A stretch of DNA of 60,985 bases, filler included, from Xylographa opegraphella (GCA_022813865.1; 5 parts of 5 records of this genome joined end to end with filler, not necessarily neighbours in it), one strand, 5' to 3'; positions 11,384 to 57,774 are shown, counted from the first letter of the whole stretch. Program-made: numbers and translations. The notes: a model not told the origin generated them from the letters alone.

Positions 11384-11573
11384 TGTTGAAAATCCAGGGG
11401 GTTAGCAGCCTGTGTTGTCGGCTTGTACTATAGCCAATTAGGACTAGCTTANNNNNNNNNNNNNNNNNNNNNNNNNNNNNNNNNNNNNNNNNNNNNNNNN
11501 NNNNNNNNNAGTGATTAAGCAATGCACTGCTATCTGCTGCCAAAACCCCTGTGCCTAGTGATTAAATTCAACA
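11384..11573 (+). mobile_element. Solo LTR, family A (internal N gap), 5-bp TSD AGAAC
   Basis: TGTTGAAA...TTCAACA; AGAAC at 11379-11383 and 11574-11578. Confidence 0.9.
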
Positions 11574-12975: not shown

Positions 12976-13075
12976 NNNNNNNNNNNNNNNNNNNNNNNNN
13001 NNNNNNNNNNNNNNNNNNNTTAATTAATTAANNNNNNNNNNNNNNNNNNNNNNNNNNNNNNNNNNNNNNNNNNNN
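12976..13075. other. Artificial contig spacer N44-TTAATTAATTAA-N44
   Basis: The same 100-bp construct recurs at 25168-25267, 37286-37385 and 49148-49247; the 12-mer has stops in all six frames. Confidence 0.97.
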
Positions 13076-25167: not shown

Positions 25168-25267
25168 NNNNNNNNNNNNNNNNNNNNNNNNNNNNNNNNN
25201 NNNNNNNNNNNTTAATTAATTAANNNNNNNNNNNNNNNNNNNNNNNNNNNNNNNNNNNNNNNNNNNN

Positions 25268-37285: not shown

Positions 37286-37385
37286 NNNNNNNNNNNNNNN
37301 NNNNNNNNNNNNNNNNNNNNNNNNNNNNNTTAATTAATTAANNNNNNNNNNNNNNNNNNNNNNNNNNNNNNNNNNNNNNNNNNNN

Positions 37386-38775
37386 TTTATTAAAGAAGTT
37401 CATCGATTAATAGTCCTTTCTTAAAATTAATAAACGTTTTAATTTTCGAAGTAACTATTTTTATTCGACTAAAATAAAATTTATCGATTTATAATATTAT
37501 TTTCGATTTAGCGTTTTACAGTATTGTTAAGAGATTAATAAAAATTTAAATCTTTTTTAATACTTTAAATAATATTTAATTTAAATTAAAATATAAAGTT
37601 CATTTAAAAGTAGTTTATCGCTATCGTTAATATTACAAGAATTTTAATTATAGTAAGTTTTATGTAAATATAAATATATTTATTATAAATATTTATCACT
37701 TAATATTATAAATACTGCTGAAAGTAAATAATTGTATAAACAATAAAAAATATGATTTACAAAATCGAAAGCTTTATTTATATATATATAAAACTTTCTA
37801 ATTGAGCAGAAAACTTTTATTATTTATATATAACAAAACCTTTAGTAAGCAATCAGGGTAATTACAGCTAAAATTTATATTTTATAATTATAATAAAAAT
37901 TTACAGCAGAAACATGCGATTTATAGTTATAATATACGATTTATAATTATATGAAATATTTAATAAAAAAAGACTGTCGCCTTAAAAAGTATAAGTACAA
38001 AGTATAATAAAGAAATATTTTAAAATAATATTAACTTCGTATTCTCTATTACTTTTTTATAAAAAATTATTAATTAAACTTTTCGCGTTATTAAGGTTTT
38101 TATCGTTGTATTAATTATTATATTTTAATTCGTTTTTTGTTTGGCGTAGAAAATATTTTATTAAATATTGACGATTTTTTTTACCTTTCGCCGTTTTAAA
38201 AATCAATCGATTTTATTTTTTAATTTACTTTTATTAATATAAATAACTATTAATTTGTTTTCGTTTTATTATATAAATTCTATTAACAAAATATTGCAGA
38301 TTTTAAATAAACGATTCAAATTATGGAATATATTTTTAATATTTTTTGGAAATTTTAATTTATACGTCAAACGTTCGATGCATTTAAAATTTTTAAACGA
38401 TTTAATAAATTGTCAATAAATCTCTCGTTATTTAATCTTTAATATATTATATTTTTTGTATAATTTTAAATTTACCATAAATTTTTTAAAAATCGATATA
38501 TATTCTAAATGGTAATATATTTTTATTTTTATTTTAATTTTTATAATTGCGTTTTTTGCGTCGATATAAATAAATTAATATTTATTAACGTTTATTAAAC
38601 GCGAATTATTAATAATATTAAATAAAGTATTTATATTATTATTACGAAATCTTTTCGTGGTAATTAGATAAGCAAATACAAACAATTTAATTAATATTAT
38701 ATTTTCGATTTTTATTGATTTTATATTTTTAAATTTTATAATCTTAAATTTTAAATTTTTAAATTTTAAAAAATT
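37386..38775. mobile_element. Heavily RIP-degraded repeat relic
   Basis: Very AT-rich with CpG retention; no readable ORF. Confidence 0.6.
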
Positions 38776-38777
38776 CG

Positions 38778-41700
38778 GTAATACTGGTACAATTCGCAAA
38801 ACGTGGTTTTTAACCACGTGGTTTCCTTGCTGAAGCCCATTTTGTGCGTGGCTTTCTGGCTGGAGCCCCCATTTTACAGAGTTTTTACCCCGCCTGCTTT
38901 TGCAAAACTAACGTAAAAGGGCCCTATATAATAAACCCCGTTTTTATAAATATTCAGAAATTTTTTATTTATACAAAAGCTTACATTACTCGTGATATAT
39001 TAATGATATTATTATTAATATTGATTTAAATTAAATATTAAAATTCCTAGAAATCATTAGCTATTATAATATCATTATAATTCCCCCCCCCCCCTCCCCC
39101 CCTTTCGTATTTAATCAGGTGTATTATTTCTCGTTAAGAAATCTCTATTTTAAATTTTTCGTTTTCGTTTTTCTGCCAAAATTCCTTTTTTTTACAATAA
39201 TTATCGCCACCGTGGCGATCTTTAAGTTTAACGAATTTATTCTTTTTATCTATTGATTTCAGACGTTCATTAACCTTAAATATTGATATAATCGATATTT
39301 ATTTAAATTTATACGAAAAGAAATTTACGAAATAATAATAATTTATAATAATTTTATTTTATCGAAATTCATTTTCGTTGACTTTAAAATTCGTAATTAA
39401 TTTACTAAAATATTCTTCGCTAATTTTAGATTAAAATAAATGATTAATAATGTTTTCGTTCGTGTTATTTAATATTTTCCAAAAGATTTTACGGTGTCGT
39501 TTTTGCTCCACGATTATAATCTTTATTTAACAAAAAATTCGAATCTACTATTCAATAAATTAAAGTTTTATTTAAATTAAAATAATGAATTTTTATTAAA
39601 GAATTTATATCTACGGCATTACTTATTACTTTTTTCAATTTTTTATAATTTAAATTTTTAAATTTTTGATTTTTGGGCAAGTTAAACTCTCGAATCTTAA
39701 ATATACGTGTTAAAAATATACGAAAATATATAATAATCTTTAAAAATATAAAATTTGGTAAATTTAACTAAAAAATCGAATTCGAATAAGTAGTTAAAAG
39801 CGGTTTTAGTATTGTTTCTGACTATAATTTTATTTTTTATAATACTTTCAAATTAAATCCTTATACGAATAGTTTTAGTATTATATTTTTTCAAAAATAA
39901 ACGATATTATTCGTAAAAATGATACAAATATTTTCGTAATAACCTTTCATTTTAATTTAGTAAAATAGTAAATTTTTTAAATTACTGTAGTACGACAGAG
40001 CGATATAGCTAAAGTTTATAATATTAAATATTTTAACCTTAACGTAAAAGGTGTTAATAATATTGTTTTAATTGGAAAATATATATTTTAAAAAAACATA
40101 TATGTTCTTATCTATAAATATAAAAATATAATAGTAATTAAAGGTAATAAAGTCGTTTTTAAAGCCTTTTTGATATATTTTAAAAAAAAGTATAAAAATA
40201 ATACGCGGTAAAAATTAATCTAGTAAGAAGAAACTTTTAAGAATAGCGAATTTTAAATTTATTTATTTAATAATGAATAAATTAATTTAAAAACCGAATA
40301 GCGATCGCGTTTACGATTTCATATTTTAAAATCTTTAAATATAAAGAAATGAAGAATAATATTATACTTCGTTTTTATGTTTAAACGATATTTAAATATA
40401 CTAAAGTCGTACGATTAATATTTAAATATACTAAAGTCGTACGATTAATATTTAAGTATAATTAATCAATCGCAGTATAAAATAATTCTAAGCCCGATTT
40501 TAAAATATAAATATCAAAAAACAATACTACTATTAAACAATTTCTTAACTTTTTCAACGAAAAAGAAAATGCATTCTAAAATATAGTAGTTAAAAAATTT
40601 TTGATAATTAATATAAATTTAATCTTCGTTTTAAATTTAAATTTTTTTTAATTTGATTAATTTTAAGGTAATACTAACTGAGATAAACGCGTTGAGAAAT
40701 ATTAAGAATAATGATAAAATGGTTAAAAAAATTACTTAAATAAATATTTAAGAGGCAATAATAATAATAACTAAAATTCATTATAAAGAAATTTTCATTA
40801 ATAACCTTTATTTTTTACTTAGAAAAAGCCAAAGCAAACGATTAAAATTTAAATTTAACAATATAAAATTAAAGACGAAAATAATTATTAAAAAATAACG
40901 GCTATAGTTATTGAAATCGTAATTAAGGTCGTAATACGTATTAAATCGTATCGATTGACGAAAATTATTATTTTAAATATAACGTAAATATAATTACGGA
41001 GTAAATTAATAATGTATATAATTATAACGCTAGCTATAAAAAGAGATATAATAATTTATCATAATAATTATTCGAAAACGAAGATTTGTTAATAAATTTC
41101 GTAGTCGACAATTTTGATTTATTATTTAATATAATCTTTAAGTACAAAAAAAATATAAAGCGATATTTTTTTAAATAATTATTTTGATTTATACGTTAAA
41201 GAAGGGGAAATTTTATTCGTTTATTATAATTCGAGAGATATATGTAATCGCGAAATTTATAAAATCGATAAAGTTTATTGAAATTTTGAATAATATCAAT
41301 AATATTTTAAAGTAATAAAATCTAATATTAATATTACTGTAAATACGGGCTTCAATTTCGGTTTTCGAAATTAATATATTATAATAAATATTAAATTTAA
41401 TAATGATACGACGCGATAGTTTAAAAAATATATTTAGATATAAAATATTTTTTAAATTTTAATAAATTGTAAATAATTATTTTTACAAATGCTAAAAATT
41501 TATATTAAATAAATAGCTTTTTAATTACAGCTCGCGAAATTAGAAATAATATATGTTTTATTTTAAATTATATAGTTCTGTTTATATATCTTTTTATCTA
41601 TATAAAAAATAACCCGTTAAAGCGTTTATTATAAAAAAATACGTCGCCGACGATTCACGTATTAAAATATTAATTAAAATAAATATTATAAACTTTGAGA

Positions 41701-43930
41701 ATATCGACGTTCAAAATTTTATAAAAACGACGTAAATTAAAACTTATAAAATTAAAGTTCCAATTAAATCGAAATTTTGTTACGCGTTAATTCGTTACGT
41801 AACATACCTAAAAATCGATATATATAATATAATAATCCCGCTATTTTATATAGTTAAAATATTAATATACTTCGCTGCGATTTCAAAGATAAATGATTTC
41901 CTATTCGAATTTTTATTTACAATCGAATGTATATCTTTTTATAATTATATAATCAATAGTTAAATAAATTATATTATAATTAAAAATAATTTGTTTTATA
42001 TTATTAAAGTCCCGAGAAATCTGCGTTTAAAAATATTTAGCGAAATAAATTTTGATAATTATTATTATATAATAGAAATTTTAGCTCGAGTATTAAAATT
42101 TATAAATAAAAATGTTAATAATTCAATTAATTTAAAGATTATTTATATTTATAACTGCTTTTTGATCGTAGCTTTAATTTGTTTTAATATAATTAACGTA
42201 ATAAAAATCTTTTTGATATCTTAAATTGATATTTCGTTTATATTATGTGTTTTAGTATTATTATTGTTTCAACCGGCGCTTTCAATTATTAAATGTCAAA
42301 CTAAATCTTTTAACGACGTTAACGTTTTCAAGCGCGACGGATATTATTTTTCGAGTTTTAAAAATTAATTAATAGTTTTTAATAATTTTAAATAAATTTA
42401 AAATCTATAAAAATATTTAAAAAAATTTAATAAGAATTCATAAAAATATTTAAAAAAATTTCAAGAATTTTATTTTAAATCAATTAGGAATTTAAAGTTT
42501 TTAAGAAATCTTTATCGTGCTCGTTTTATACTATTAACATTGATTATATATTAAGTTTATTTATCTTTATTAAAGATTTCAATTGTTATTTTATAACTAT
42601 TTACAGTTTCTTTTGTGTATTGTTATATTATCGAAAAATTATATAAACTGTAGTATAATAAGCAAAAATACTTTTAAATCAATTAAATTTCGTAGAATAA
42701 AGTATTTTTAAATTTATATTATTAAATAAAAATTCAAAATTCCTCAGCGAGTTATAAATCGGTTATTTTTTTAAAAAAAATATATTTATTATACTCGACT
42801 GTTTATTATTTATAAACGAATAAAAAAATAAGTGTACGAATTAAATCTTTAAAATTATACTACGATATTAATTTAATATATTTAACAACGTAAATTTATA
42901 GCTTTCAATACTATTTTGATTTTGATTAAATTTAAATAATTTATTATCTGTAATTATAAATAATACTTTTAATAAAGTTGTTTACGAATTTATATCGAAT
43001 TAGTTTATTAATTTATTGCGTAAAATTAAGAATTTAAAAAAAATTTAACAGCTACCGCAGTTCGTATCGAGGTAAAAAACGTTATAATTATAATTATAAT
43101 ATTTATTGAATATTATTATAATAAACGATATTAAATATTATTTGTATTAATCGAAGATTACGTTATACTACGATTTTATAAAAAAAAAATATTTTATCGA
43201 TCAAAAGTCGAAAGTTAAAATCACAATACGCCGAACTTTTTAAGGTTTTTAAACGATTTGATTAATTAATTAATTTTATATTTTATAATACTGGCGTATT
43301 GATTTCATATTTTTAATGGCAATGCTTGAATTAATTTTAAATTTAATAGTAAATTCATTTTGAAGATTAAAATTAAACAAGTTAAAAGTAGTATATATTA
43401 ATAACGATACAAATTTTAATAAATTTTACGAGTTAAATAAAATTATTAATAAAACTATTATATTAATAAAATTCACTCGATATTCAATGAAATAGAAACA
43501 ATACGGGTTAAAATTTCATATATAAAAAATCTTACGGCTGATAGAAAATACGCGCGATTTAATTTAAAATTATGAAATTTAATCAAAAACGATTATTATA
43601 TTATTAATAGCGAATAAATCTGAGCGCAAGCGAAAAATGTAAATTTGCTTTATTTATATATATATATGTTATAAGCAGCGAAAACGCTATTTTCTTTTCG
43701 TTTTAACGGGCAAATTGATATAATTCGCAAAACGTAATTTTTAGCTACGTGGCTTCCTTGCTAAAATTTACTTTATACGTGGTTTTTTTGCTGGGGCCTT
43801 TATTTTGTAAAGTTTTTACCCCGCTTATTTTTGTAGAATTAGCGTAAAAGGGCCTTATATAATGAGGCCCGTTTCTATAAACATTCATGATTTTTTTCAT
43901 TTACATAAAAAGCTCATATTGCTCGTGACA
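38778..43930 (+). mobile_element. RIP-degraded LTR retrotransposon, family E (LTRs about 38778-38997 and 43667-43930)
   Basis: Direct repeats of about 220-260 bp ending CTCGTGATA/CTCGTGACA; right copy starts TGTTAT; faint RNase H-like traces (VADDSR near 41643) on +. Could instead be two solo LTRs. Confidence 0.65.
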
Positions 43931-45420
43931 AATAGAAATATTACGCTTTTTCGCAAATGCGAGACAATATTTACCATTGTTTAGAAATAAAAGATCTGGA
44001 TTTGATGTCAATAAAATATTAATATTAGCAAAAGACCTAAAAGACACGTATGAAGCGTTATTAAAAAAATCGAGTAGAATAACAACAAGATTATTATTGC
44101 AAGACGAAAAAATACGAAAAATAAACCTCAGCTAAAGAAGAAGGATAAAATATACTTTTCACAAAAAATACAATAATTAACAAAAATCGAACCATGAAAC
44201 TCGATGATATTAAAATCGAACCATTTTAATTAAATAAGTTAAAAAACCAGTTAACTACTTTTTTAATTTACCAAAAAATACAAAAGTATACCTAGTATTT
44301 TATATATTTTTATTGGAATCAGCAGACGTAAATACCCTATTATAAACAATCTTTCGATATAATAAAAAAGAACAGATTTTAAATAAAAGAAATCCTGGAT
44401 AAACAAATGTAAAACTATTTAATCAAATAAAAGAAATACCTAAAATTGAATAATACTTAAGAACCACTTATTAGCCTTGGGAACCGCCAGAAACTTTTTC
44501 GACAGTATTGTCCAACAAAGTAAATATTTTAGAAAAAAAATTTTAAAATTCTAGGAAGAAAAAAAGAAAAAAGAAAAAACCTTAAAGAAATCGCTGGTAA
44601 AAATTATAACTTTACGTTCTTCGTCCTTTTTTAAAGTTTTAATGTTAATATTTCTCGTTGAAATATTGTACGACTCTCAGCCTTAAGGTTTAAAAGCCGA
44701 TTTTTCTTAGCTGCAAGTTTTGCAGCTTTGTAAACGCGGCGGCCTCAGCTTTTATTACTTTAAATTTAACCTTTAACTCGATAATTTTTTTTACGAAAAC
44801 GACGTTTCTTTTCTTTTAATGCTCTTTTATCGGCATCGATAATAATTAACAAACAACGTGCTTTTATTTTAATACATTATATATAAAAATCAGAATTCGC
44901 AGAGATTAAGCACAAAACACCTTCCTGAATACAGCGATCGCAAGAATGCATTACAATTTTTCTTTTTTCACGAATATCGATTGATTGAACTTTTCGACGG
45001 TAAAAATTAAATGACTTATGCTTAAGCATAATAAAGAGAAACTGCTAAAATTCTTTCGAAGTAAGAATCTGGCGGGGGAAGCTAGTAATAAGGTTCTGAT
45101 CAATACTGTATAAAACAGAGGTCGAAGGAATTATAATTCGATGCTTTTATTGCTTTTATGACCTCGGTCACGAAGGCATAAGGGGCATAAAAAGTATTAC
45201 CGAACAGGACTTCTATATAAAATAAAGGATTTCCTTTACTATAAAAGGCGTATTTAATTTATATTATAATTTTAAATTAGTAAACTTTAATATAATATTA
45301 TACGAAAACTATTACTTTTGGAGAACGATAAATTTGTTACTGTGTCTTTTTATTTATTCATTAACGAATTCAGCTCAAATCCCTAATCGAACTACATTAA
45401 TAAGAAGCAGAATCGTAATA
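43931..45420 (+). mobile_element. 3' part of Gypsy family C: integrase end, chromodomain, antisense ORF, PPT, 3' LTR 45086-45420
   Basis: Homologous in inverted orientation to 49310-50350; PPT GGCGGGGGAAGCTAG; LTR TAATAAGGTTCTG...GAATCGTAATA. Confidence 0.85.
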
Positions 45421-46095
45421 CCATGGTTTTCGATAGTATTAAATTTTATAGTTAAATTGCTACTATCGAAAGAATTTATAATAAAGATTAAATGCGACTT
45501 TATTTTATAATTATAAATAAATTTATTAAGGAAGTTTATTTTATTTAATATATAAAGAACTGGAATACAGAGGACTTAGTATATATTTTTTTAAAATATA
45601 TAATTTTTATATAATTACTGCCAAATAAATTTATATTTAACAGAAATAAACTAATTATATTAAAGTTTTAGCAGGTATTGACTAAGTAATTATTGAAAAT
45701 TAATTATAAATTATTAACTAAATATTATTCGTAAACGAATAGGCAAATAACAAAAAAATTTAAATGATTGAATAGTATTTTCGAATATACGTAAATTACC
45801 GATAAAACGATTAGATTATATTACTGCTAATAGGATAATCAATATATAATAATATTATTAATAAAATAATCAAATAAACGCTATTTTACGCTAATTATAA
45901 ATATTATATAAAACTATTTCGAGACCCGCGATCTGCAGAAGAAATTAATAATTTAATAAATATATTAATTAAAAAATTTCGACGATTATATATCGATTTG
46001 AAAAAGAATATAAAATTCCTAAGTTTTAAATCAGTATTTTACGAAAATAAATATAAATTCAAAGGCTTTATATTAAAAAAAAGGGATAAAGGCTA

Positions 46096-48009
46096 GAAAA
46101 GTTCCTCGGTCCGTGCACGGTCCCACTAATGCACGCCCTCATTTAAAATCCACCACCACATTAAATTTCGAATCACACCACAATCAATGTATATATGGAG
46201 CTCAAATTCATACAGTAAATAGATTGAATCAATATTAAAATATTTAATTATTTATATTGCTGCCGAAATTGTACTAATAGCTTTCGTGGCCTTCCCAGCC
46301 TTTCTACTTCAATATATACCCATTTCTCCTCGACAGCAATTTCTTTAACTAAAGCTACCTCTTTCTATATTAATATGGCGGGAGTCTTTTTTTACGCCCC
46401 TTGGTTCGTTTTTTAAAGCCGCTTTAAATCTGTTGTACAGCCTGCTTAATAAGTTTTGCCTTCTTTTTAATAGCCCTTTTTTCCGCCGAATCTTGCGTTT
46501 TCTGGATTCGAGTATTTTTCTTATCAAGCTTCCTCTGGGCTACCTCTGCAGGCTTGGCTTTCTTTTATATTAGTCTTTCTTGCTTTTCGATCGCTTTCTG
46601 TTCTGTTTGTATAGCTTTTTTATCGTCCTTAAAGATAATAAGCTCTCGAGCCTGCCGTATTTTAGCTGGGCTAAAGAATACGGCCTTTGAATCATCATTT
46701 CTTAGCGCATTAAATATTGGCTTACCCCGCTTTCTTCTTTTCTTTTTGATAAATACTGCCCTTTTTAAACCTTCGTTTTCTGCTTCTAGGATTGAGACTT
46801 TTGCTGTAAACTGTTCAAGAGTGTTTAAAATATTTCGGACTTCTATTCCAAGCATATTATCAACTACTGTCTTGAGAAGGTAATTTATTTTAATCCAATC
46901 GGTATCCGAGAGGGCTGTGGAGCTTACAGAGCCACTATAATAAGGTTTTGTCGGCTCTTTGGCTTGAAGCTGGCCTAGAATCTCCTCTGGATTAAAAGGA
47001 GACAGGCCAGTTTTTAACTACCTACTTGCTATGTTCTTTTGGCTAAACGCCCGTATATAAGCAGGCTAAAATAAGCTAAAGAAGTATTTTTTATTTAGCT
47101 TATATAGCCCTTGTATTTTATGGATCCATGTGCTTAATTCTTATAAGTAGTAATTTGCCAAGGAATTAAACAAGTTTATATTTAGTGGCTGTAGTCGATA
47201 AGTTGAATGTGGAGAATATACGGCCAAAAGGATTTTATGTTAATTATATTATTTTATAAACTTTATGTTTATATAGCTGCCGTATTTATTAATCAGTAAA
47301 AGCCTAAAATCTCTCCCAAGGCGTGCCTTGCTTTTGGTGTGCCGGTCAAATACCTTAGTTAATCAAAAGAATCCCAAGAAATTATTGGTTCAATTAGTAA
47401 AAAATAATGCAAAGTAGACTTCTTTAGTTTTAAAATTGTTTAACCAGGAGTCTTAAAGGTTGTTTGCTGCGCCTTGGTAAATAACGATTAATAGGAAATA
47501 GAATCCATTTATGCAGATCGTAGCCATAACTGTGATCCACTCCCTGTTTCCATCTTGATCAGTACCCCTTATTTTAATGTGTTTAGACACTACCCTTTTT
47601 GTTTTCTGAAGGACACCAATCAGAAAGCCTGTCTCATCCATATTATAGGTATTTTGGGGGAGTATGTCGTATTGGGCCATTTTTGAAGCAATCTGCTATA
47701 TATAAATATAAGAATAGTGTCAATCTGGACCACTAACCTTGTTAAAATAGAGTTTATATACATAAATATTATCTGCTTTCTTCCGGCTTAAATCAAAGCC
47801 TAGTTGGTACCCTAAGTCGAGCTTTTCTTTGTTTCGTTTTACATAGCGGGAAAGCTAGTTCTTTGCCGGCTGAATTCCACCGATATTTTTAGCAAAATTT
47901 CGAACTAATTGGACTTATATCGGTGGAGTTACAGCAGGTTGACTGTTGTCAAGTTCTTAAGTACTACGCGTGCATTCACTGGGGCCGTGCACGGACCGAG
48001 GAACTCTTT
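46096..48009 (-). mobile_element. pogo/Fot1-type (Tc1/mariner superfamily) DNA transposon, 1914 bp, TA TSD, disrupted transposase
   Basis: TIR core AGTTCCTCGGTCCGTGCACGG at both ends; TA at 46094-46095 and 48010-48011; DDE motifs YNMDETGFLIG and QDGNREWITV; C-terminal AVFFSPAKI; many stops. Confidence 0.93.
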
Positions 48010-49085
48010 TACCTATTTCGTAAAAATATCGAAATAATAAAATCAAGCAGAAAGTTAAACCAAGTTCAAATTAAATATTTTAAAATTATTCGTAACATTA
48101 AAAATATAAGCTTCGAGCTTAAATTGCTAAAAGGAATAAAAATATATTTAATAGTTTATATATTATTACTAAAAGCGGTACCGCCAGAAATTCCAGAGTT
48201 AATATAAATACCGGACAACTACTTAATAAAATAAGAGCAGAAGTGGGAAGTAAAGAAAAATCTAAATAACAGTCAGGACTTCGACGATAATATATATAAA
48301 TATATTATTAAATAAAAAAACATTTAAATAACAAAAATACATCAAAATCAATAATTAATTTTAACGATTATAAAAAACTTATTAAATAATATTATTAAAA
48401 AATACGAATTTTAGGGGAAAATAATAATAAAAATAAAGACTCGAAATTAAGGTTATTAAAATTAGATACGAGATTTTTCGAACGAGTAGTCGTTAATATT
48501 AATAAAAAATAACTTGCTACTGATTTTCCTTCGCTTTTATTCTTCCTATTTTTTTTATATTTTTGAAATTTAAAGCGATTATTTTCGCCTCGCAAGTTAC
48601 TAAATATGTTTTATTTTATCACGCGATAACGTTTTAATAAAATATTTTTTATTTATTTTCTTATCGCTTTTAATTTAGCGTCTAAACGATTTCGTTCTTT
48701 ATTAACTTTTGCAAAATCAAAATTAAAAAAAAATTTTATATCGCAGAAACAATCACGCTTGAGGCAGGCTAAATAAAAATTAAAATAATTAAAAATAATA
48801 CAATTAAATTGCGCTTTTTAACAGATTACGATTTCAAACGTTATATAAATATTAAAGTGTTTCACCTAGTTTATTAATATTTTATAATAATTATGTCGAA
48901 GTTTGAACGACATATAAAAAAAACTTTCTTTTAAAAATAAAAGTTTTGAAGGGGGAGCTAGTGTTACGAACCGCTAAATATTATAATAAAATAAAATTCT
49001 GGGGGGCAGCTCGAACAAGAAAATAGTTTAAATTCAATAGTTAATAATAAATAATCGTGGTATGAACGTAAAATATTAAAACGAC

Positions 49086-49147
<62 letters not shown>
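49086..49147. repeat. (TAT)n microsatellite at contig end
   Basis: About 20 perfect TAT units. Confidence 0.95.
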
Positions 49148-49247
49148 NNNNNNNNNNNNNNNNNNNNNNNNNNNNNNNNNNNNNNNNNNNNTTAATTAAT
49201 TAANNNNNNNNNNNNNNNNNNNNNNNNNNNNNNNNNNNNNNNNNNNN

Positions 49248-49309
49248 CATTGACGAATCCAACCCAGATCCTTAATCGAACTATACTAGTGAGAGGCAGG
49301 ATCGTAACA
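49248..49309 (+). mobile_element. LTR family C, 3' end at contig start
   Basis: ...CCCAGATCCTTAATCGAACTATACTAGTGAGAGGCAGGATCGTAACA; least RIPped copy of this LTR end. Confidence 0.85.
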
Positions 49310-52300
49310 GCACAGTATTCGCGATAAAGGAAAATTCACAACACATTCTTGTGATCGTTGTATTAAAAAGTGTTTTCTTTATATGATTTCCCCGGAGTCA
49401 AAATTCTGCGCGAATTATATAACAGTCAAAGCTTATTATTTTTTAATTATTATCGAAGCCGACCGTCAAGATTTAAAAAACGAAAAAATAAAGCAAAACG
49501 TCGAGTGGCCGAGTTAAAATAAATTTTAAAACAGGTTTAGTAAGCCCTTGATCGTGAAAAGCGTCGGCTCTTGAATTTTAAAAATAAAGAACGAGAAATA
49601 TTTCAGCGTGAGATAATTAATATCGAGGCTCTGGAAAACGATGAACGTCGAGAGGCGAAAAAGCCTTTACCAGCGATTCCTATGGGGTCCTTTCTCCTTC
49701 TCTTCTTTTTCCTGGGGCTTTGGAAGCTTTTTCTTTCGAGATACTTGCTCTGCTTGATAATATTATTAAAGAAGTTCCCGGCAGTTCCCAAGGGTAATAA
49801 GTGGTTCCTAAGTATTATTCGATTCTGGGTATTTCTTTTATTTAACCAAATAACTCTGACCTTGCTTGTTCAGGATTCTTTTTATTTTAAATTTTTATTT
49901 TAAATTTTTATTTTTTCTCCTTGTTGTATCGAAAGGTTATTTATAATGAAGTACTGACGTTCGCAGGTTTCAACAAGAATATATAAAATACTAAGTATAT
50001 TTTCGCATTTTTTGGCAAATCGAGAAGGTAATTATCTGATTTTTTAACTTATTGGATTAAAAATGATTCGACTTTGATATAATTTAGCTTTTTACTTCGA
50101 TTTTTACTAATTATCAAATTCTTTGTAAGAAAATATACTTTATCTCCCTTTTTTAGCTAAGGTTTATTCTTAATATTTTTATACCTTTTAGCAATAATCG
50201 TATTGTTGCTCTGTTTGATTTTTATGGCTAACGCTTTATGCGTTGTTCTTAAGTTTTTGGCTAATATTATTGCTTTGTTTGCATTAAATACCGGCCTCTT
50301 GTCTTTAAATAATTGTGAATAATATTCTGTATTTGCGAAAAAGGGCGATAGCTTTTTTATTGCAAATTGTTTGTCGTTTAGTGCCAGTTGTTTTAAAGGC
50401 AATAATAATACTCAATTATTTTGTTTTGAATTAATAAAGTGTCGCAGGTATACCTTCAAGCTCTGGTTTATTTTCTTAATTGATTTATTTATCTGCGAAT
50501 GATAAATTGTTAAAAAGTTTAATTTAATTTCTAGTTTAAATAATAAAATCTTCCAGAAGTTAAATATAAACAATTTGTTTCTATCGAATGTTATTTCTGC
50601 TGGGAAACCATGATTTTTTATAAATTTGTTTAATAAGAGAAATGCCAATTATTCTATTAAGAATATTTCCCTAAATGATACGATAATAGAGTATTTTGTA
50701 AATTTGTTCATAAATATCATTAATGAATCATATTTTAATCCTATAGCTAAATCCTCTAACTTTGGCAATTTTATAATAAAGTCGATCGAAATCTGTTCCC
50801 ATGGTTTATTTAAAATCTTTAAAAATTAAATATTTCCATACACTGCGTATTTTGTTGACTTATTCTTTTAACATAGTATGTACTTCTTGATATATTTCTT
50901 TACATGCTTTCTTATGTTTAGAAATTCGTAATTTCTCTTTATGAGTTCTATTGTTTTGATAACTCCTGGATGGCCATTGGTCGGTTTATCATAATAATGT
51001 TTAATCATTTTTTCTGCTGACGATCCTGTTAAATCTTTTATAATCGCCTTTATTTCAAAAGCCGCGATCTGCCTTGTAGAAATAAAAACTTCACTGTTAT
51101 CTTTTCGTAACAAGGCCCCATTTATTGATTCTTTATCCATAAGGTTTTTTCTTCTACTGAATATATCTGCTTTCCCATTGTCTTTGCCTGGTGGGTATAT
51201 AATTTTCAATTTATACTGTTTCAATAGTTTCGCCTATCGTATTTATTTTCTGTTAAGCATTTTTATTGTAGTAAAATTTAACAAATTTTTATAATTTATG
51301 TAAATAATAAGTTTCGAACAGCTCTCCGCATACATTTTATAATTTTAAATAAATGCTATTATAGCAAGTAGTTCTTTATCGTGAATATTATACTTTTATT
51401 CTGCTTGTAATATCTTTCTTGAGTAATATACGATAGGGTGCCATTTCCCATTTTATATTTTAATAAACATGTTTTTATAGTTAAGTCTGATGCGTTTGTT
51501 TCCATTCTTGCAGGTTTTCCTACCTGGAATATTATTAAAACTTATGATTTTGCACAATTTTTTTTAAAATATCAAAGACTCGTTGTTGATTCGAATTCTA
51601 TTTAAAGTTTATATTTTTATGTGTCAGGTTCGTTAGGGGTATCGCCTTTTTAAAGTAATTTTTAGTAAAAGTTCTGTTGAAGTTTGCAAATTCTAAAAAT
51701 TTTAAAACCTTTTTGGCTGTTGTTGGCTGCGGCCATTCGAGTATAATTTTCATTTTCGCTGGGTTTATTTTGATTCCACCTTTGCTAATTATAAATTTTT
51801 GAAAAACTATTTCGTTTTTGTTAAATTCACATTTTTTAATTTAAAAAATAGTTCTGCTTTTCCTAAGCATGTAAGTACTTCCTGTACATGTTTTACAAGT
51901 TTTTCTGCTGATTTCGAATAAATAAGTATGTTATCCAAATAGACTACCACCGTTAAGTTTAAATACGTCTTTAACACGTTATTGACCAGCGTTTGATAAA
52001 TAGTAAATGCATTGATTAACCGAAAAAGTATAATTTGATATTCATAATGCCTATATCTGCTTCGAAATGCAGTTTTCCATTCTTTACCTTCTTTTATCCT
52101 GATCAAATTGTATGCGCCTTTCAGGTCAAGCTTGATAAAAATCTTGGCTTTATTAAATCTGTCCCGCATCTCGCTAATTTTCGATAGCGAATATCGATTT
52201 TTAATGATAATATCGTTCAACTTTTGATAATTGATGCAAGGTTTCAAGCTTTCATTTTTCTTAAATACAAATATTACGAGATATTCTGCTAAGGATTTTG

Positions 52301-53938
52301 ATTTATGTATGAATTCTTTTTTCAGGCTTTTATTAATATACTTACAAAGCTTCTGAAATTCTTTTTTTAACATGTTGTATATAAATTCCAATATTGGCAC
52401 CTTTCCTGGTTCGAGATTAATTTTACAGTCCCAAGATTGATGCTTAAATAAAGCATTAAATCCTTCCTTTTTCTAAAAAAGCCATGTTCATGCTTTATAT
52501 TTTTCAGGGATGTCAAGAGGTGCGTCGCTTTTTTTTAAACTTTGATTTAATTCGCCCTGCTGATTTTTATTAATGCGTATGGAGTCGAACTCTCGAGCGA
52601 GATCGTTTTTATTCGAAAATAAAAAATTTATAATCTCGATTGATTTTCGATTTTTTTTATATTTATTATCGTTCTCTGTCGATGCATAAAATATATATTA
52701 ATAACGCGATTGATATATTTTTTGATAAGTACTCCTTTATCCTAGTTTAGAGATATATTGTGCTTGATTTATCAAGATAAGTTTAAAATAATATAGTACT
52801 TGGCCATGATAATTATATTAAAGACTATATTCTTATAATGTTAATAAATAGCGACAGGAAGCGATTTTATATATTATTCTGTTTCCTTTCTTGATAACCC
52901 GTAGACCATTATTATTTAAATTTATTTTAAAGTCGTTGATTCGAAGCCACAGCTATTCGCGAAAATACTGAATATATAATTCGAATTGGCTTTAATATTT
53001 AATAATGCGATTATTCGATAATCGTTTATTATAATCGAAATCTTTGTAAAATTTATACAGTCTTGTTCTTTCCAGTATGTTTTAAAGTATATTATATTAA
53101 TCTTTATATATTTCCCCTTAATATATAAAATTATTCTTTTCCCTGTTCGAGGTAGCCGTGAATTTCTTTGATTTCTATGTATATTACACATTTTCCATAG
53201 AAATATCATTGCCATAACGAATTTTTATAGTCGTTTTTTTTGAACGGGTTTCGTATATCATTAAATTACAACAGAATTCTTGCGTATATTCTGAAAAGTT
53301 TGAATATTTTCGTTTTTCTTTTAAATGCCAAGGGCATTTATTCTTAAAATATTTATCCCAAACCTGAGTTCCACAGCAGGCTTTGCCTGTGCGGCCATTA
53401 TATTTATAATTTCTTTAGTAAATAATATAATAAACGCTTGTGCAAGCGCTATAGTGTATTATATAATAACGTAAATATTCTAAATTTATTTAATAATTCT
53501 AATTCCCCTTTTCTGTATATTTCGACATTTTTGACTCGACAGTTTCTTTGTAAATTCAATTATCGGGATTATTTAACTCGATTTCTTATTCCTTAAGATT
53601 TTTTTTGATTTACAGACTGTTAATATTCTTTTATTATTTTCTGTAACACTTGGGGGTAGGTTTGGTCGTTCTCCTGATACAGTTACTTGAAAAATATTTA
53701 AAGTGTTACGATTCTGCTTCTCACTAGTATAATTCGATTAGGGATCTGGGTTGAATTCGTTAATAAATAAATAAAAAGATATAATAACAATTTAATAATT
53801 CTTTAAAAGTAATAATTTTCGTATAAAGTGTTTGTATTGAAATTTACTATTTTAAAATTATAACATGAGTTGAATACGCCTTTTACAATAAAGGAAATCC
53901 TTTGCTTTATATAAAAATCCTGTTTTAAAGTGCCTTCC
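49310..53938 (-). mobile_element. Near full-length Gypsy chromovirus-like element, family C, RIP-inactivated (5' LTR part 53704-53938)
   Basis: Protease-like [55 protein letters not shown] (YxDD to YLDN); RNase H; integrase zinc finger GHPG; rve; chromodomain-like YLVK*KKYP..NT*EP near 49800-49850. Confidence 0.93.
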
Positions 53939-53953
53939 TGTTACGATCCTGCC

Positions 53954-54201
53954 TGTAACGGCGTGTTACATGGCACCTTAACAAGTGATAGACGGAACGG
54001 GACTAAAGCGCGTCCGGNNNNNNNNNNNNNNNNNNNNNNNNNNNNNNNNNNNNNNNNNNNNNNNNNNNNNNNNNNNNNNNNNTTATTTTAACTTCTACGT
54101 GTATTACTAAACTTGCTTCCTTATATTATTCTAGGTTGAAATCGCTCATCTATAGCTGTGGTTCTAGGCCTGCTCTTCTGGTGAGATAGCGAGCCGTAAC
54201 A
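53954..54201 (+). mobile_element. LTR family B (spans an N gap), next to a 15-bp stub of another family C LTR (53939-53953)
   Basis: TGTAACGG...GCCGTAACA; the start matches 25096. Confidence 0.8.
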
Positions 54202-55102
54202 CTATTGCAGCACCAGTTTTTATTAACTTATTTTTTATCGAGTCTTTAAGTCCCTTACGGTATATTACAATCAAAGTATTATTATTTTATTTAATTTAAA
54301 TCGCAAACTGCTGGAATCGAGTTAAATATTCTGCGCAAGATTTTTTTTGTCTGAGATGCTATATAATTTATATTGCCGTGTTTTTTTTGTTTAATGGTTC
54401 AAAAACTCTTCGAATTTTGACCTTGAACGTTGCAAAGCTTTTTAACCACCTGGAGTCTTCGTTGTCAGGGTCTTCGAGATGTTTTTTAAAATAAAGGGTA
54501 ACCCATTTCTAAGCTTGTCCTCGCATGTACGTAATAGCGAAAAGTAATTTCTTTAACTCTGGGATACTGTTCCCTTGAAACCTAAAAAACAGGTTTATTT
54601 ACATGAGCGAGTCCTTTAAATAGTCTCTATTTTCTTTATATTTATTAGGTCTCTTTACCTTAACGCGATCATTTTCTCCTGTGGTATTTTTTTTATTGCC
54701 TTCTGCAACATTTAAGGGTAAATTTAGTCGTGCTCCTAATACGCTTATTTTAAAAATGTTCAAAGTATTACGATCCTGCTTCTTACTAATATAATTCGAT
54801 TAAGGATCTGGGTTGAATTCGTCAATAAATAAATAGGAAGGCACGGTAACAATTTAATTATTTTTTAAAAGTAATAGTTTTCGTACAAGGGGTTTATATT
54901 GAAGTTTATTATTCTACGATCATAATATAAGTTGAATACGCCTTTTACAGTAAAAAGATTCTTCGCTTTATATAAAAGTCCTGTTTTAAAATATTTTTTA
55001 TGCCTCCCATGCCTTCGTGGACGAGGCCATGAAGGCAACGGAGGCATCGGGTCATAGTTTCCCCGATCCCTGTTCCACACAGTATTGGTCAGAACCTTAT
55101 CA
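54202..55102 (-). mobile_element. Gypsy family C: 5' LTR (54766-55102) plus gag start
   Basis: LTR reverse complement TGATAAGGTTCTG...GGATCGTAATA with internal TATATAAA; followed by the same leader as at 53703 and gag-like KVKRPNKY..FAITYMRGQA. Confidence 0.88.
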
Positions 55103-56560
55103 TTTAGCGAGATTATTATAATTTTATATAATAAATTTATCGCTTTATTTAACAAAATTACTGCGATTTCGTTTAGCAAATTATTTACTTTATTTAATAA
55201 AATCGCAATTTTTAAAAATAAAAAAAACGCAACGTAAAAAACCCCGACAATTTTAAGTAAAATATATAAATTTGTAATTTTAATTTTTAAAAAAACAAAG
55301 AAAAAGCTATAATCGAAGAAAATTTCGAAATTTAAATTTATCGTTTTTTTATTTAATAAAAAAAGCCGTAGTTTCTTCAAGTTAGTCAAAGGAAATATTA
55401 ACTCGATTTTACAAAAATAAATAAAAAACGATCGAAAAAAACATCGAAGTTGAAAGAAGCGTAAATACGAATAATTTATCGCGAAAACGAAAAATGTTTT
55501 ATAATAAAAAATCGGTAATAACGCAGTCGTTTAATAATTTATTAAATAAAAAATAAAATTTATTATTTTTAAAGGCCAATTTTAAATTAAATTAATTCCT
55601 TAAAAAATATTGATTTTAGAAGAATTTACGATCGATATAACAAATTATAAATAAAAAATAGCGAAATTGAAAGTAAAAATAAAAGTCAGCTCGAATTTTT
55701 AGTAATTTTTAACGAATCCCTTTATTTTTAAAGTATTTTATAGTTTAATAACCGTTAACAATACAGAAAATCTTTATAATATTCATAATTTTATGGAACT
55801 TTTTAATAAAAAATTTAAATTTTAAAAATTTCCGCTTTTTTTATCAGCCGTATTAAATTTTTTAATTAAAACGTTTGTTTTAATAAATTCGATGCTTTTA
55901 TAAAATAAACGATAATAAACTCGTGTATTTACATACGATTAGCGTCGTTAATAAAAAAAATTGCGAATTATAATAAAAAAAAGTTAATTCGCTAAAAAAA
56001 AAATTAAATTAAAAAATTATTAAGAGATAAAAAACGAACGGGGTTCAAAGCAGTAAAAATATCATTATATTTAAAAAGGGGAAAGAACTGTAGTAAATTC
56101 GAAGCGCGTTTTTCAAATAGCTTCAAATTTAAAGCTTTTTTCTTTATATATTTTTATAAAGCGATAAAGCAGCAGAGTCAAAACGGCGGTTAATTTATTT
56201 TTATTTTTATTTTTTACTTTTTATCGAACGAATAATAACTTTATTTAGTAAAAACTTGATTTAACTGCGATTTCGATTTATTTTTTTATTTATTTTTTTA
56301 TTTATTTATTTTATTTATTTTTTTATTTATTTTTTTATTTATTTTTTTATTTATTTTTTTTATTTATTTTTTATTTATTTTTTTATTTATTTTTTTATTT
56401 ATTTTGTTATTTATTTTTTTATTTATTTTTTTAATTTATTTTTTTATTTATTTCTTTATTTATTTAACTAAACTGCTGCGAATTTCCTACGAGTTTTTTT
56501 ACATTAATGGCGCAGTATTTCCGCTTCGATCAGTACAATATTCTTTTTTTAAATTTAGCT
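55103..56560. mobile_element. RIP-degraded relic with a (TTTA/TTTT)n tract at 56278-56465
   Basis: Very AT-rich with CpG retention; simple-sequence tract. Confidence 0.65.
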
Positions 56561-56670
56561 CCAGGAGATCTTGGCTTTCCACACGCTGTATATTGAGCGA
56601 GAGGTCCCCTCACGCTGGATCACCTGGTTGTGCATCAAATCTAGAATATGCCTGAGTTTTGCCCTTGGTT

Positions 56671-57774
56671 ATGCTAAAACTCAAAGGAAGATACTCCATT
56701 GTGGCGCAGATTGGCCAGTCCCCACCGCTCGAGTTCCCAGGAAGCGTAGATGATTCTTGGCTCAACAACAAGGTGATCGTTATCACCGGCGGCGCCAGCG
56801 GGTTCGGCGAGGGTTGGGTTCGCCGCTGGGCAGCCGCTGGAGCATGCGTTGTATTCGGCGACATCAATGTCCCCAGAGGAACCAAGCTTACCGAGCACGT
56901 CAGAGCAGAAACGAAGAATGAGCACGTTCACTTTCGTTATTGCGATGTCACCAGTTGGCCATCCCAAGTGGAGCTCTTCAAGGAAGCCATTAGGCTCAGC
57001 CCGCACGGCGGTATCGACGCCGTAGTTGCAAATGCTGGTATCGCCGACTCCAAGCTCGAGCTGGAGAATCCGAAGAACCTTGACGCGGACGATCCTCCCC
57101 CCCCCAATCTTGACTGCCTGGACGTCGATTTGATCGGAGTGATCTACACCACACATCTCGCCATTTTCTACCTACAGCATAACCCTGGTTCAGCTCCCGC
57201 GAGTTATACCACCGATCCTACCCGGTTGCTCCGTGACCGCCACCTTCTTCTCATAGGTTCTGCGGCCAGTTTCAGTCCTATCCCGTCTCAGGCCCTATAT
57301 GGCGCATCCAAGCATGCAGTAATGGGTCTATATCGGTGCCTCCGCTCTTCTATCTTCGTACACGGGATCCGCATAAACCTACTATGCCCGTACTTTGTTG
57401 ACACGCCACTATTGACTGCGTCCGGGCGCGCTCTCCTTGCTGGAGCATCAGTCGGTACCGCTGAGGATGTGGTCGAAGCCGGATCAAGGTTCATGGCAGA
57501 CCCGAGGATTGTAGGGCGAGCTGTGAGCATTGGCCCGAAACTGAGAATTGAGGAGGATGAGAGTGGGGAATATGTGCTGACACAGAAGAGGGAAGTCGCG
57601 CCAAAGGCGATCTGGGAGATATATGCAATGGACTTTGAGGATACGGAGGTTTTCCAGCGGAGGATTGTGGGGATATTGAACCGAGCTTTGGAGTTTAGAG
57701 GCTGGATTGGGTGGGGAAGTGATATGATGGGTGCGATGAGCTACCGATTGAAAGGGCTGTGGCGGGGATCATGA
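56671..57774 (+). CDS. Short-chain dehydrogenase/reductase (classical SDR)
   Basis: VIVITGGASGFG, CDVTSW, VVANAGI, catalytic YGASK, INLLCPYFVDTP; first in-frame ATG at 56671, start uncertain. Confidence 0.92.
   Translation: MLKLKGRYSIVAQIGQSPPLEFPGSVDDSWLNNKVIVITGGASGFGEGWVRRWAAAGACVVFGDINVPRGTKLTEHVRAETKNEHVHFRYCDVTSWPSQVELFKEAIRLSPHGGIDAVVANAGIADSKLELENPKNLDADDPPPPNLDCLDVDLIGVIYTTHLAIFYLQHNPGSAPASYTTDPTRLLRDRHLLLIGSAASFSPIPSQALYGASKHAVMGLYRCLRSSIFVHGIRINLLCPYFVDTPLLTASGRALLAGASVGTAEDVVEAGSRFMADPRIVGRAVSIGPKLRIEEDESGEYVLTQKREVAPKAIWEIYAMDFEDTEVFQRRIVGILNRALEFRGWIGWGSDMMGAMSYRLKGLWRGS

Follow-up and report, generated by a model that had tools for sequence, protein, structure and literature searches.

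A putative zinc-cluster gene on the antisense strand of RIP-damaged Ty3/Gypsy retrotransposons in Xylographa opegraphella

Ty3/Gypsy retrotransposons are usually described as carrying gag and pol. In a 60,985-nt stretch of DNA from Xylographa opegraphella (GCA_022813865.1; the whole stretch is hereafter called the window), elements of this group hold an additional open reading frame (ORF) whose product would contain six regularly spaced cysteines. It lies on the strand opposite pol, between the chromodomain-coding end of pol and the polypurine tract (PPT) that precedes the 3′ long terminal repeat (LTR). The copies in the window are damaged by repeat-induced point mutation (RIP), and intact relatives occur in environmental and run assemblies.

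Antisense reading frames and their host elements

The ORF was traced at three sites:

44553-45029, minus strand: antisense accessory ORF, copy 1, RIP-damaged (hidden Markov model (HMM) of external homologues, alignment, translation)
44853-44942, minus strand: six-Cys module of copy 1, with five Cys, a TAT codon (Tyr) at Cys4 and one TAA stop (pattern scan)
48647-48832, minus strand: antisense ORF remnant, copy 2, containing stops, with four Cys, one Tyr and one Ile at the six positions (pattern scan)
49311-49801, plus strand: copy 3 of the antisense accessory ORF, divided between two frames (49311-49493 and 49469-49672; family HMM, translations)
49350-49439, plus strand: six-Cys module of copy 3, with three Cys and three TAT codons (pattern scan)

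The original prediction had quoted peptide strings at 44942-44853 (minus), 48823-48743 (minus) and 49350-49439 (plus) and had taken the missing Cys for TAT codons; translation returns the same three strings, and each Cys that it had marked as missing is indeed TAT in the sequence. When all six frames of the 60,985 nt were scanned for Cys or Tyr at offsets 0, 3, 10, 19, 22 and 29, with at least three Cys and at least five Cys-or-Tyr, exactly these three sites and no others were returned. In simulated sequence (first-order Markov, 300 runs modelled on the 18,635-nt AT-rich region of the window), this relaxed rule gave a mean of 0.033 matches, against the three observed, and a stricter rule (at least four Cys and at least five Cys-or-Tyr) gave 0.007, against two.

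Judged from their sequences, copies 1 and 3 are clear homologues of each other (tblastn E 2e-12), with transitions making up 115 of the 179 mismatches between them. Both were recovered when an HMM built from 37 external homologues alone was run on the six-frame translation of the window: copy 1 matched at 44553-45020 with 65.0 bits (independent E-value 2e-21), and copy 3 with 38.5 bits (3e-13) at 49311-49493 and 19.9 bits (2e-7) at 49469-49672. The ATG of copy 1 (45029-45027) aligns with the MPK/MPR start of the homologues, and its tail probably continues to about 44467 in another frame. Copy 3 is frameshifted and has lost its first ~17 codons at the end of another LTR (49310); its tail reaches about 49801, overlapping the chromodomain end.

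Mapping of pol, PPT and LTR upholds the claimed position of the ORF, between the chromodomain and the PPT on the antisense strand, for at least two LTR families within the window. The surrounding features are as follows:

44389-44514, plus strand: chromodomain-coding pol end of the left Gypsy fragment (assigned by homology to the right element; no Pfam match of its own)
45061-45071, plus strand: PPT (GGCGGGGGAAG) of the left element, followed by the LTR (read directly)
45076-45421, plus strand: 3′ LTR of the left Gypsy fragment (matches the LTR end at 49248-49310 and, in inverted orientation, two LTR copies, 53703-53924 and 54765-55100)
46100-47999, minus strand: DNA transposon with ~38-nt terminal inverted repeats, within the integrase of the middle Gypsy (DDE_1, 20.8 bits, E 3e-4; repeats read in the sequence)
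48001-48400, plus strand: integrase end and chromodomain-like stretch of the middle Gypsy (SH3_Tf2-1, 18.1 bits, E 0.003; WEV..-type chromodomain start in the translation)
48948-48957, plus strand: PPT (GAAGGGGGAG) of the middle element (read directly)
48962-49147, plus strand: beginning (TGTTAC...) of the middle element's 3′ LTR, continuing into an (ATT)n tract and up to the piece boundary (sequence and repeat comparison)
49148-49247, no strand: artificial linker N44-TTAATTAATTAA-N44, joining two assembly pieces (repeat comparison and composition)
49248-49310, plus orientation: 3′ end of an LTR that cuts copy 3 at its 5′ side (repeats; the HMM matches copy 3 only from profile position 18 onward)
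49754-49879, minus strand: Chromo domain of the right Gypsy pol (PF00385, 18.5 bits, E 0.0019, under the 25.1-bit cut-off)
49962-52262, minus strand: pol of the right Gypsy (Pfam scan)
51804-52262, minus strand: RVT_1 of the right Gypsy (62.6 bits)
51213-51455, minus strand: RT_RNaseH of the right Gypsy (54.3 bits)
50856-51020, minus strand: Integrase_H2C2 of the right Gypsy (47.9 bits)
49962-50147, minus strand: SH3_Tf2-1 of the right Gypsy (20 bits, below its cut-off)
54245-54541, minus strand: gag of the right Gypsy (Retrotrans_gag, 36.8 bits)

The right element, on the minus strand and with ORF copy 3 on the plus strand, is a Ty3/Gypsy chromovirus: it shows the order gag, reverse transcriptase, RNase H, integrase and C-terminal chromodomain, the SH3_Tf2-1 and Chromo matches being below their cut-offs. 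In inverted orientation, the left fragment shows homology to this element (44224-44540 with 49728-50062), with an inverted repeat of 75% pairing 44367-44540 with 49728-49901. The middle element is a second Gypsy, whose LTR differs from that of the left and right elements. Because homology to the ORF begins at profile position 18, exactly at the LTR edge, copy 3 appears to have been truncated by a nested insertion. A sense arrangement at 49310, in the order LTR, primer-binding site and gag, was considered and rejected, as the pol of the right element lies on the other strand and homology starts only at that profile position.

At the 5′ end of the right Gypsy, two inverted LTR copies (53626-53924 and 54688-55100) stand 1,062 nt apart, with a run of N (54018-54082) between them; they could represent a solo LTR, a tandem LTR or an assembly artefact. 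The DNA transposon at 46100-47999 has a GC content of 0.37 and a (CA+TG)/(AC+GT) ratio of 1.12 and is thus clearly less RIP-mutated than its surroundings, which suggests, on composition, that it arrived later than the Gypsy element around it.

Identical N44-TTAATTAATTAA-N44 linkers occur at 12976-13075, 25168-25267, 37286-37385 and 49148-49247, about every 12 kb, so that the window is a chain of separate ~12-kb pieces and neighbourhood across a linker is not genomic. Copies 1 and 2 are on one piece and copy 3 is on the next; with the linker at 49148-49247 in between, copy 3 need not adjoin the other two in the genome. Plain runs of N were also seen at 11452-11509 and 54018-54082.

The stretch from 37.4 to 56.2 kb is AT-rich (GC 0.25), with a TpA/ApT ratio of 1.03, compared with 0.66-0.75 in the genic parts, and a (CpA+TpG)/(ApC+GpT) ratio of 0.86, compared with 1.26-1.27. 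By the RIP index thresholds in common use, its base composition classes it as RIP-mutated repeat DNA of a filamentous ascomycete. In the left of this block, a 191-nt direct repeat (76%; 38776-38966 and 43707-43897, 4,931 nt apart) possibly represents the LTRs of another degraded element; a Pfam scan of the plus strand of 37400-44700 found no domain on that strand. A T-rich tandem array at 56222-56493 comprises 16 copies of ~12-nt units (TTTATTTATTTT-like), and an intact short-chain dehydrogenase-like ORF (56656-57774) lies just downstream of it.

Intact homologues and a less mutated copy

A profile of copies 1 and 3 (alignment A5, with stops entered as X) was searched with HMMER against 1.84 billion representative proteins, with no restriction on length, and matched seven proteins at E≤0.001, all of at most 185 aa. 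The best of these, P0006, is a 177-aa open frame (E 9e-22) in which all six Cys are intact, at residues 30, 33, 40, 49, 52 and 59, that is, with gaps of 2, 6, 8, 2 and 6. Two further profile searches gave 15 and 27 matches at E≤0.001, and the resulting family set comprises 37 homologues of about 60-225 aa (alignment A9), the intact relatives having ~140-225 residues. All are unnamed or labelled 'hypothetical protein', and their sources are environmental or run assemblies from ENA, JGI or Logan. Copy 1 by itself, in a word-index search, brought up 28 candidates, none of them scored, and scans of IMG/VR returned no relatives. The nearest clusters in the ESM Atlas, which serve as a lead only, are unnamed Ascomycota 'hypothetical proteins' without Pfam domains.

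The six Cys columns of the 37-row alignment hold 157 Cys, 42 Tyr and 23 gaps, and no other residue; all six Cys are present in 18 of the 32 rows that cover all six columns. Since TGY to TAY is the RIP change at TpG, many of the database members are themselves RIPped copies, and the Cys are otherwise invariant. Throughout the alignment, the proteins share a start of MPK or MPR followed by a basic stretch, a long helical region in which the motif RLRKQRRLL...RE..NI.ELE.DE recurs, and a short, acidic-hydrophobic tail that closes with ..P.GSS or ..PVSSGA. The MPK/MPR start, the six Cys and the C-terminal motifs are common to three diverged subfamilies with 13-46% identity to P0006. The expectation that six Cys could be restored in one open frame is thereby borne out by the intact homologues, while the window copies themselves hold five, four and three Cys. 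Among the 37 members, a Pfam domain of unassigned function in fungi, DUF3716, gave weak matches in four (best E 0.028), a possible distant link.

The same expectation finds support in the organism's own reads. One DNA run (X1) holds 97% of the sampled words of 44300-45500, and no RNA run is among the listed holders of words from this stretch. Among the contigs of run X1, which were aligned to the window at ≥80% likeness, one of 612 nt has a word depth of 916, compared with 153-167 for contigs identical to the window (depth being no measure of copy number). Over 44788-44996, the stretch that it spans, it shows 38 differences from the window, T>C or A>G (plus strand) in nearly every case. A decoding by hand of the minus strand gives TGC in place of the Tyr codon at Cys4 and CAA in place of the TAA stop; Ile-stop turns into Ala-Gln, giving C-A-Q-C like the C-A-x-C of the family; Ser before the first Cys becomes Pro; and the lead-in changes from ..KIVMHS.. 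to the ..KFAMHP.. type (KFAMHPC-type), as in P0006. Over the readable stretch of this contig, as judged from the differences listed (a further 128 exist), six Cys in one open frame are restored. GC-rich loose ends of the higher-depth version extend past 44788 and 44996. Little-mutated copies of the element may thus persist in the organism, being absent from the assembly or collapsed in it.

Beyond the window, element context was obtained from a 3,549-nt metagenome locus (L001), which a scan with the alignment of subfamily B identified as a RIPped member of another subfamily. Its ORF lies on the plus strand at 1344-1952, and its minus strand carries SH3_Tf2-1 (E 2e-6), a weak Integrase_H2C2 match and, with its end near 1869, a YLVKxKGY stretch resembling a chromodomain. 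A purine tract, in complement (1212-1222), and the TGTTA start of an LTR stand immediately upstream of the ORF, so that the order reads LTR, PPT, ORF start and ORF end, the last overlapping the chromodomain end. The window shows the same order, copy 3 probably ending near 49801 inside the Chromo domain at 49754-49879. This layout is therefore common to three element lineages, namely the two LTR families in the window and L001.

Three further features of L001 were noted. Four copies of a 34-nt palindromic repeat (AAGTTCCTG..CACGTG..CAGGAAC) stand at 979-1128 in LTR-like sequence, and beside them, also inside LTR-like sequence, a TATAAAG lies at 1177 on the ORF strand, ~170 nt upstream of the ATG. 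Read from sequence, these are candidate factor-binding sites and a candidate promoter for the antisense gene, which fits the idea of an antisense promoter in the LTR and proves nothing. In addition, positions 1-707 form an inverted copy (85-88%) of the integrase region at 2101-2833, so that two Gypsy copies face each other around the LTR-like stretch.

Predicted fold, proposed role and rival explanations

AlphaFold2, run on P0006 with the 37-row alignment, gave a model with a mean predicted local distance difference test score (pLDDT) of 84.7, in which a helix at residues 8-22 and two short helices within the Cys module (31-36 and 50-55), each beginning at a CxxC as in solved Zn2Cys6 domains, are followed by a single 80-residue helix (65-144, pLDDT 97-98) and a low-confidence tail. 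In a Foldseek search of the PDB, the best 18 of 24 matches were all Zn2Cys6 proteins (Pho7, Leu3, GAL4, LAC9, PPR1, HAP1, AlcR, PUT3 and Cep3), headed by Pho7 (E 0.14, probability 0.95). The superpositions are in register, with Z scores of 2.1-3.2 in pairwise realignment, and cover 34 residues of Leu3 (root-mean-square deviation 1.3 Å), 33 of LAC9 (1.9 Å) and 35 of GAL4 (2.2 Å; model residues 27-63 on GAL4 8-42). A second model, of P0006 residues 1-82 only (pLDDT 76.8), was compared with 48,161 representative chains without the Foldseek pre-filter; HAP1, PPR1, Pho7, LAC9 and GAL4 took ranks 1-5, Leu3 rank 7 and AlcR rank 11. Zn2Cys6 domains follow the spacing CX2CX6CX5-12CX2CX6-8C, a range into which the Cx2Cx6Cx8Cx2Cx6C of the family falls. 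The long helix shows a hydrophobic period of 3.5 residues over 65-144 (power 24.7 against a median of 4.4, or 5.6x) and no such period over 100-144 alone; a homodimer prediction for P0006 scored 0.02 and, being without controls, speaks neither for nor against a dimer.

With this evidence in hand, we regard the three sites as very probably RIP-inactivated copies of a real, conserved gene borne by a transposable element. The gene runs opposite gag-pol, starts some tens of bases from the PPT and 3′ LTR, on the side facing into the element, and overlaps the chromodomain end with its own end; the intact protein consists of a basic N-terminal helix (MPK/MPR...RRR), the Cx2Cx6Cx8Cx2Cx6C module, a helix of ~80 residues and a short acidic-hydrophobic tail. 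Going by the models, the protein is probably a DNA-binding dimer of the zinc-cluster type, and it might, more tentatively, regulate transcription of its own element. Taken as a whole, we mildly favour an account in which an ascomycete lineage of chromodomain Ty3/Gypsy elements carries an accessory gene for a minimal zinc-cluster regulator.

Under this account, the six Cys would hold two zinc ions, as in GAL4-type Zn2Cys6 domains, the long helix would pair two chains into a dimer, the basic N-terminus and the cluster would bind DNA, and the acidic-hydrophobic tail (e.g. FFESFDPGILGLL in P0006) could act as a small activation region. The result would be a stripped-down, GAL4-like minimal activator reduced to a DNA-binding part, a dimer helix and an acidic tail. 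The protein would be made from an antisense transcript arising from or in the 3′ LTR; the start codon stands ~30-140 nt from the PPT/LTR border, which would place the promoter within the 3′ LTR or on its border, directed from the outside in. The most economical target for the dimer would be the LTR of the element itself, whose binding would tune, or feed back on, transcription of the element. The broadest version, in which a widespread ascomycete chromovirus lineage encodes its own minimal Zn2Cys6 factor, made from a 3′-LTR antisense transcript, acting on LTRs and distinct from or broader than the brtn gene discussed below, seems to us rather doubtful.

Several results weigh against the favoured account. 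The sequence-level link to known zinc clusters is weak: the PF00172 scan proposed with the original prediction did not place the family in Zn_clus, as the three RIPped translations matched no Pfam family at E≤10 and the seven individually scored homologues stayed under the gathering cut-off of 21 bits. Three of these seven matched Zn_clus, at 11.5-17.3 bits, with the first CxxCx6C of the protein aligned out of register on profile positions 16-34, in the second half of the domain; across all 37 members, weak matches were found in 18 (best E 0.0017). Apart from the weak DUF3716 matches, no other Pfam domain, the middle homology region included, was found among the 37 members, and the family profile reached GAL4 (E 0.46) and LAC9 (E 2.4) among PDB sequences without significance. 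In structure comparison, no Foldseek match to the PDB attained E≤0.001, and the Z scores, which derive from predicted models, are low (2.3-3.5, compared with 2.4-2.5 for unrelated rows). Such values are expected for a 35-residue module, and the strength of the comparison lies in its consistency and not in any one score, making it a pointer and not a proof.

Further points weigh on the same side. None of the homologues comes from NCBI or UniRef, and none bears a name or a precomputed Pfam domain. For element context outside the window there is a single locus, L001, and it too is RIPped. Copy 2 is a marginal case: the family HMM gives it 4.6 bits, though in the correct register, its similarity to copy 1 is not significant (tblastn E 6-9), and the codon at its first Cys position, ATC, could not have come from RIP alone. 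The quoted strings of copies 1 and 2 each start ~120 nt from the purine tract preceding the LTR, and the weak claim of copy 2 draws on this distance, the Cys pattern and the in-register HMM match. Of the three copies originally proposed, copies 1 and 3 are thus well matched by the family HMM, and the second remains marginal. As to the proposed retroelement-borne zinc-cluster and helix protein, a real conserved gene with a predicted Zn2Cys6-like fold and a long helix holds up, and membership of the Pfam family does not. Given the weak sequence link and the scores below the Pfam cut-off, we call the modelled module Zn2Cys6-like and do not file it under PF00172.

We see an even chance that the gene is the published brtn of Boty-like retrotransposons, in which case only the fold annotation would be new. 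Zhao et al. 2011 (Virology 417:248), as cited in PMC8365987, PMC7264820 and PMC4227169, described brtn as an additional antisense gene of these elements in Botrytis cinerea, and the excerpted text of the three citing papers places it between pol and the 3′ LTR in B. cinerea and Sclerotinia. A Monilinia transcript with a chromodomain, which according to the excerpt of PMC5987419 matched both a truncated Pol and BRTN, would fit an ORF that overlaps the chromodomain. No homologue in our set is named BRTN or comes from NCBI, however, and the name 'brtn-106', as it appears in the excerpt of PMC4227169, may indicate a shorter product. In the portion of Porquier et al. (PMC8365987) at hand, the current B05.10 annotation is said to omit brtn, and other BcGypsy families are said to have extra predicted ORFs; the term 'brtn' was not found in the accessible part of its supplements.

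It is unlikely, in our view, that the product is a real zinc-binding protein with a role in the particle or in integration, such as a nucleic-acid chaperone or an integrase-targeting adaptor, instead of a transcription factor. The sub-threshold and out-of-register Zn_clus alignments would suit such a protein, as would the lack of a detectable middle homology region of fungal Zn2Cys6 factors and the position of the gene next to the chromodomain, a known targeting module of these elements. Yet the only solved folds that resemble the Cys module are DNA-binding Zn2Cys6 domains, and the order of cluster, long helix and acidic tail mirrors that of GAL4/PPR1/Leu3-type factors.

That the ORF is a captured host Zn2Cys6 fragment, a passenger without a role for the Gypsy element, is improbable. 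Zn2Cys6 proteins are the largest class of fungal transcription factors, and capture of host fragments by transposable elements is common. A passenger would not, however, readily account for full-length ORFs with the same start, six Cys and C-terminal motifs across three diverged subfamilies, nor for its presence in at least two LTR families of the window plus L001, and the length-unrestricted HMMER search revealed no longer, host-type relative (all seven matches having at most 185 aa). The slightest chance belongs to there being no gene at all, the conservation stemming from the opposite-strand pol tail or an RNA or DNA signal, or the Cys pattern from chance: although the last ~50-100 nt of the ORF overlap chromodomain-coding sequence and RIP inflates TAT/TGT-type codons, this is largely refuted by the simulated 0.007-0.03 matches against two to three observed, by Cys columns that accept only Cys or RIP-type Tyr, by open frames of 140-225 codons with a common start in many independent sequences, by a confident Zn2Cys6-like model (pLDDT 84.7) and by the fact that most of the ORF lies beyond the chromodomain.

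If the accessory-gene account with a zinc-cluster product is right, the additional gene of these elements gains a testable identity, that of a small protein in which a zinc cluster is joined to a helix of the dimer type and an acidic tail; the protein is conserved in several Gypsy subfamilies and has no named protein records. Additional antisense genes have so far been described in plants and in one fungal case, brtn, with function unknown in all. Should the protein bind the LTR, it would be a transposon-encoded regulator in fungi and would offer a handle on the timing of expression or on escape from silencing, linking mobile elements with the fungus-specific Zn2Cys6 class of regulators. On the broadest version outlined above, the family would amount to a mobile store of the DNA-binding fold that is dominant in fungal gene regulation, and its copies could seed or rewire host regulatory networks. 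The case also illustrates that a live family can be reached from copies ruined by RIP, owing to the specific decay of Cys codons to Tyr.

Comparison with known systems

With GAL4-type factors (GAL4 1d66, LAC9 1cld, PPR1 1pyi, Leu3 2er8, HAP1 1hwt, Pho7 6o19 and AlcR 1f4s), the family shares the Cys spacing, a predicted fold that superposes at 1.3-2.4 Å over 33-36 residues, and a helix following the cluster, as in dimerising factors. It differs from them in scoring below the Pfam cut-off, in its size of ~140-225 aa without a middle homology region, and in being encoded on the antisense strand of a retrotransposon. Factors of the GAL4 type typically bind paired CGG triplets, and most of them, though not all, have a dimerising coiled coil behind the cluster; the LTRs of the window and of L001 are themselves RIP-mutated, so that looking for such triplets in them would tell little. 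HBZ of the human T-cell leukaemia virus HTLV-1, a dimerising transcription factor, has its gene on the antisense strand of a retroelement, with transcription from the 3′ LTR. HBZ is a bZIP protein of a vertebrate retrovirus and not a zinc cluster, and it follows the same logic as that proposed here, by analogy only.

Closer in place are the antisense ORFs of plant Ty3/Gypsy elements (RIRE2, Grande, Retand and PvRetro13), which, according to the excerpted text of PMC7264820, resemble the present gene in position, orientation, conservation within families and a function that is unknown. They belong mostly to non-chromovirus lineages; the same excerpt gives them no zinc-cluster annotation, and a sequence relation to the present family is not expected.

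The nearest counterpart is brtn, which the excerpt of PMC7264820 groups, for Botrytis and Sclerotinia, with the plant antisense ORFs between pol and the 3′ LTR, all of unknown function. Like the gene described here, brtn is an extra antisense gene between pol and the 3′ LTR of a fungal chromodomain Gypsy that annotation has missed (PMC8365987, in excerpt). The position is that of copy 1, which lies between the chromodomain-homologous stretch (~44389-44514) and the PPT (45061-45071) with its LTR (45076-45421), and the orientation is that of the right element and L001, where the ORF runs opposite gag-pol. In contrast, brtn is known to us by description, its excerpted sources ascribe to it no zinc cluster, coiled coil or function, and the present family spans at least three subfamilies in environmental sequence. 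The survey 'LTR Retrotransposons in Fungi' (PMC3248453) contains neither 'antisense' nor 'zinc', and a full-text literature search, from whose scope subscription journals mostly fall, returned no paper that connects a zinc cluster with an accessory ORF of Gypsy elements. The antisense-gene arrangement is therefore not new, having a published fungal precedent in brtn; what is new is the identity of the protein, as a Zn2Cys6-like module is predicted for it, and the breadth of the family.

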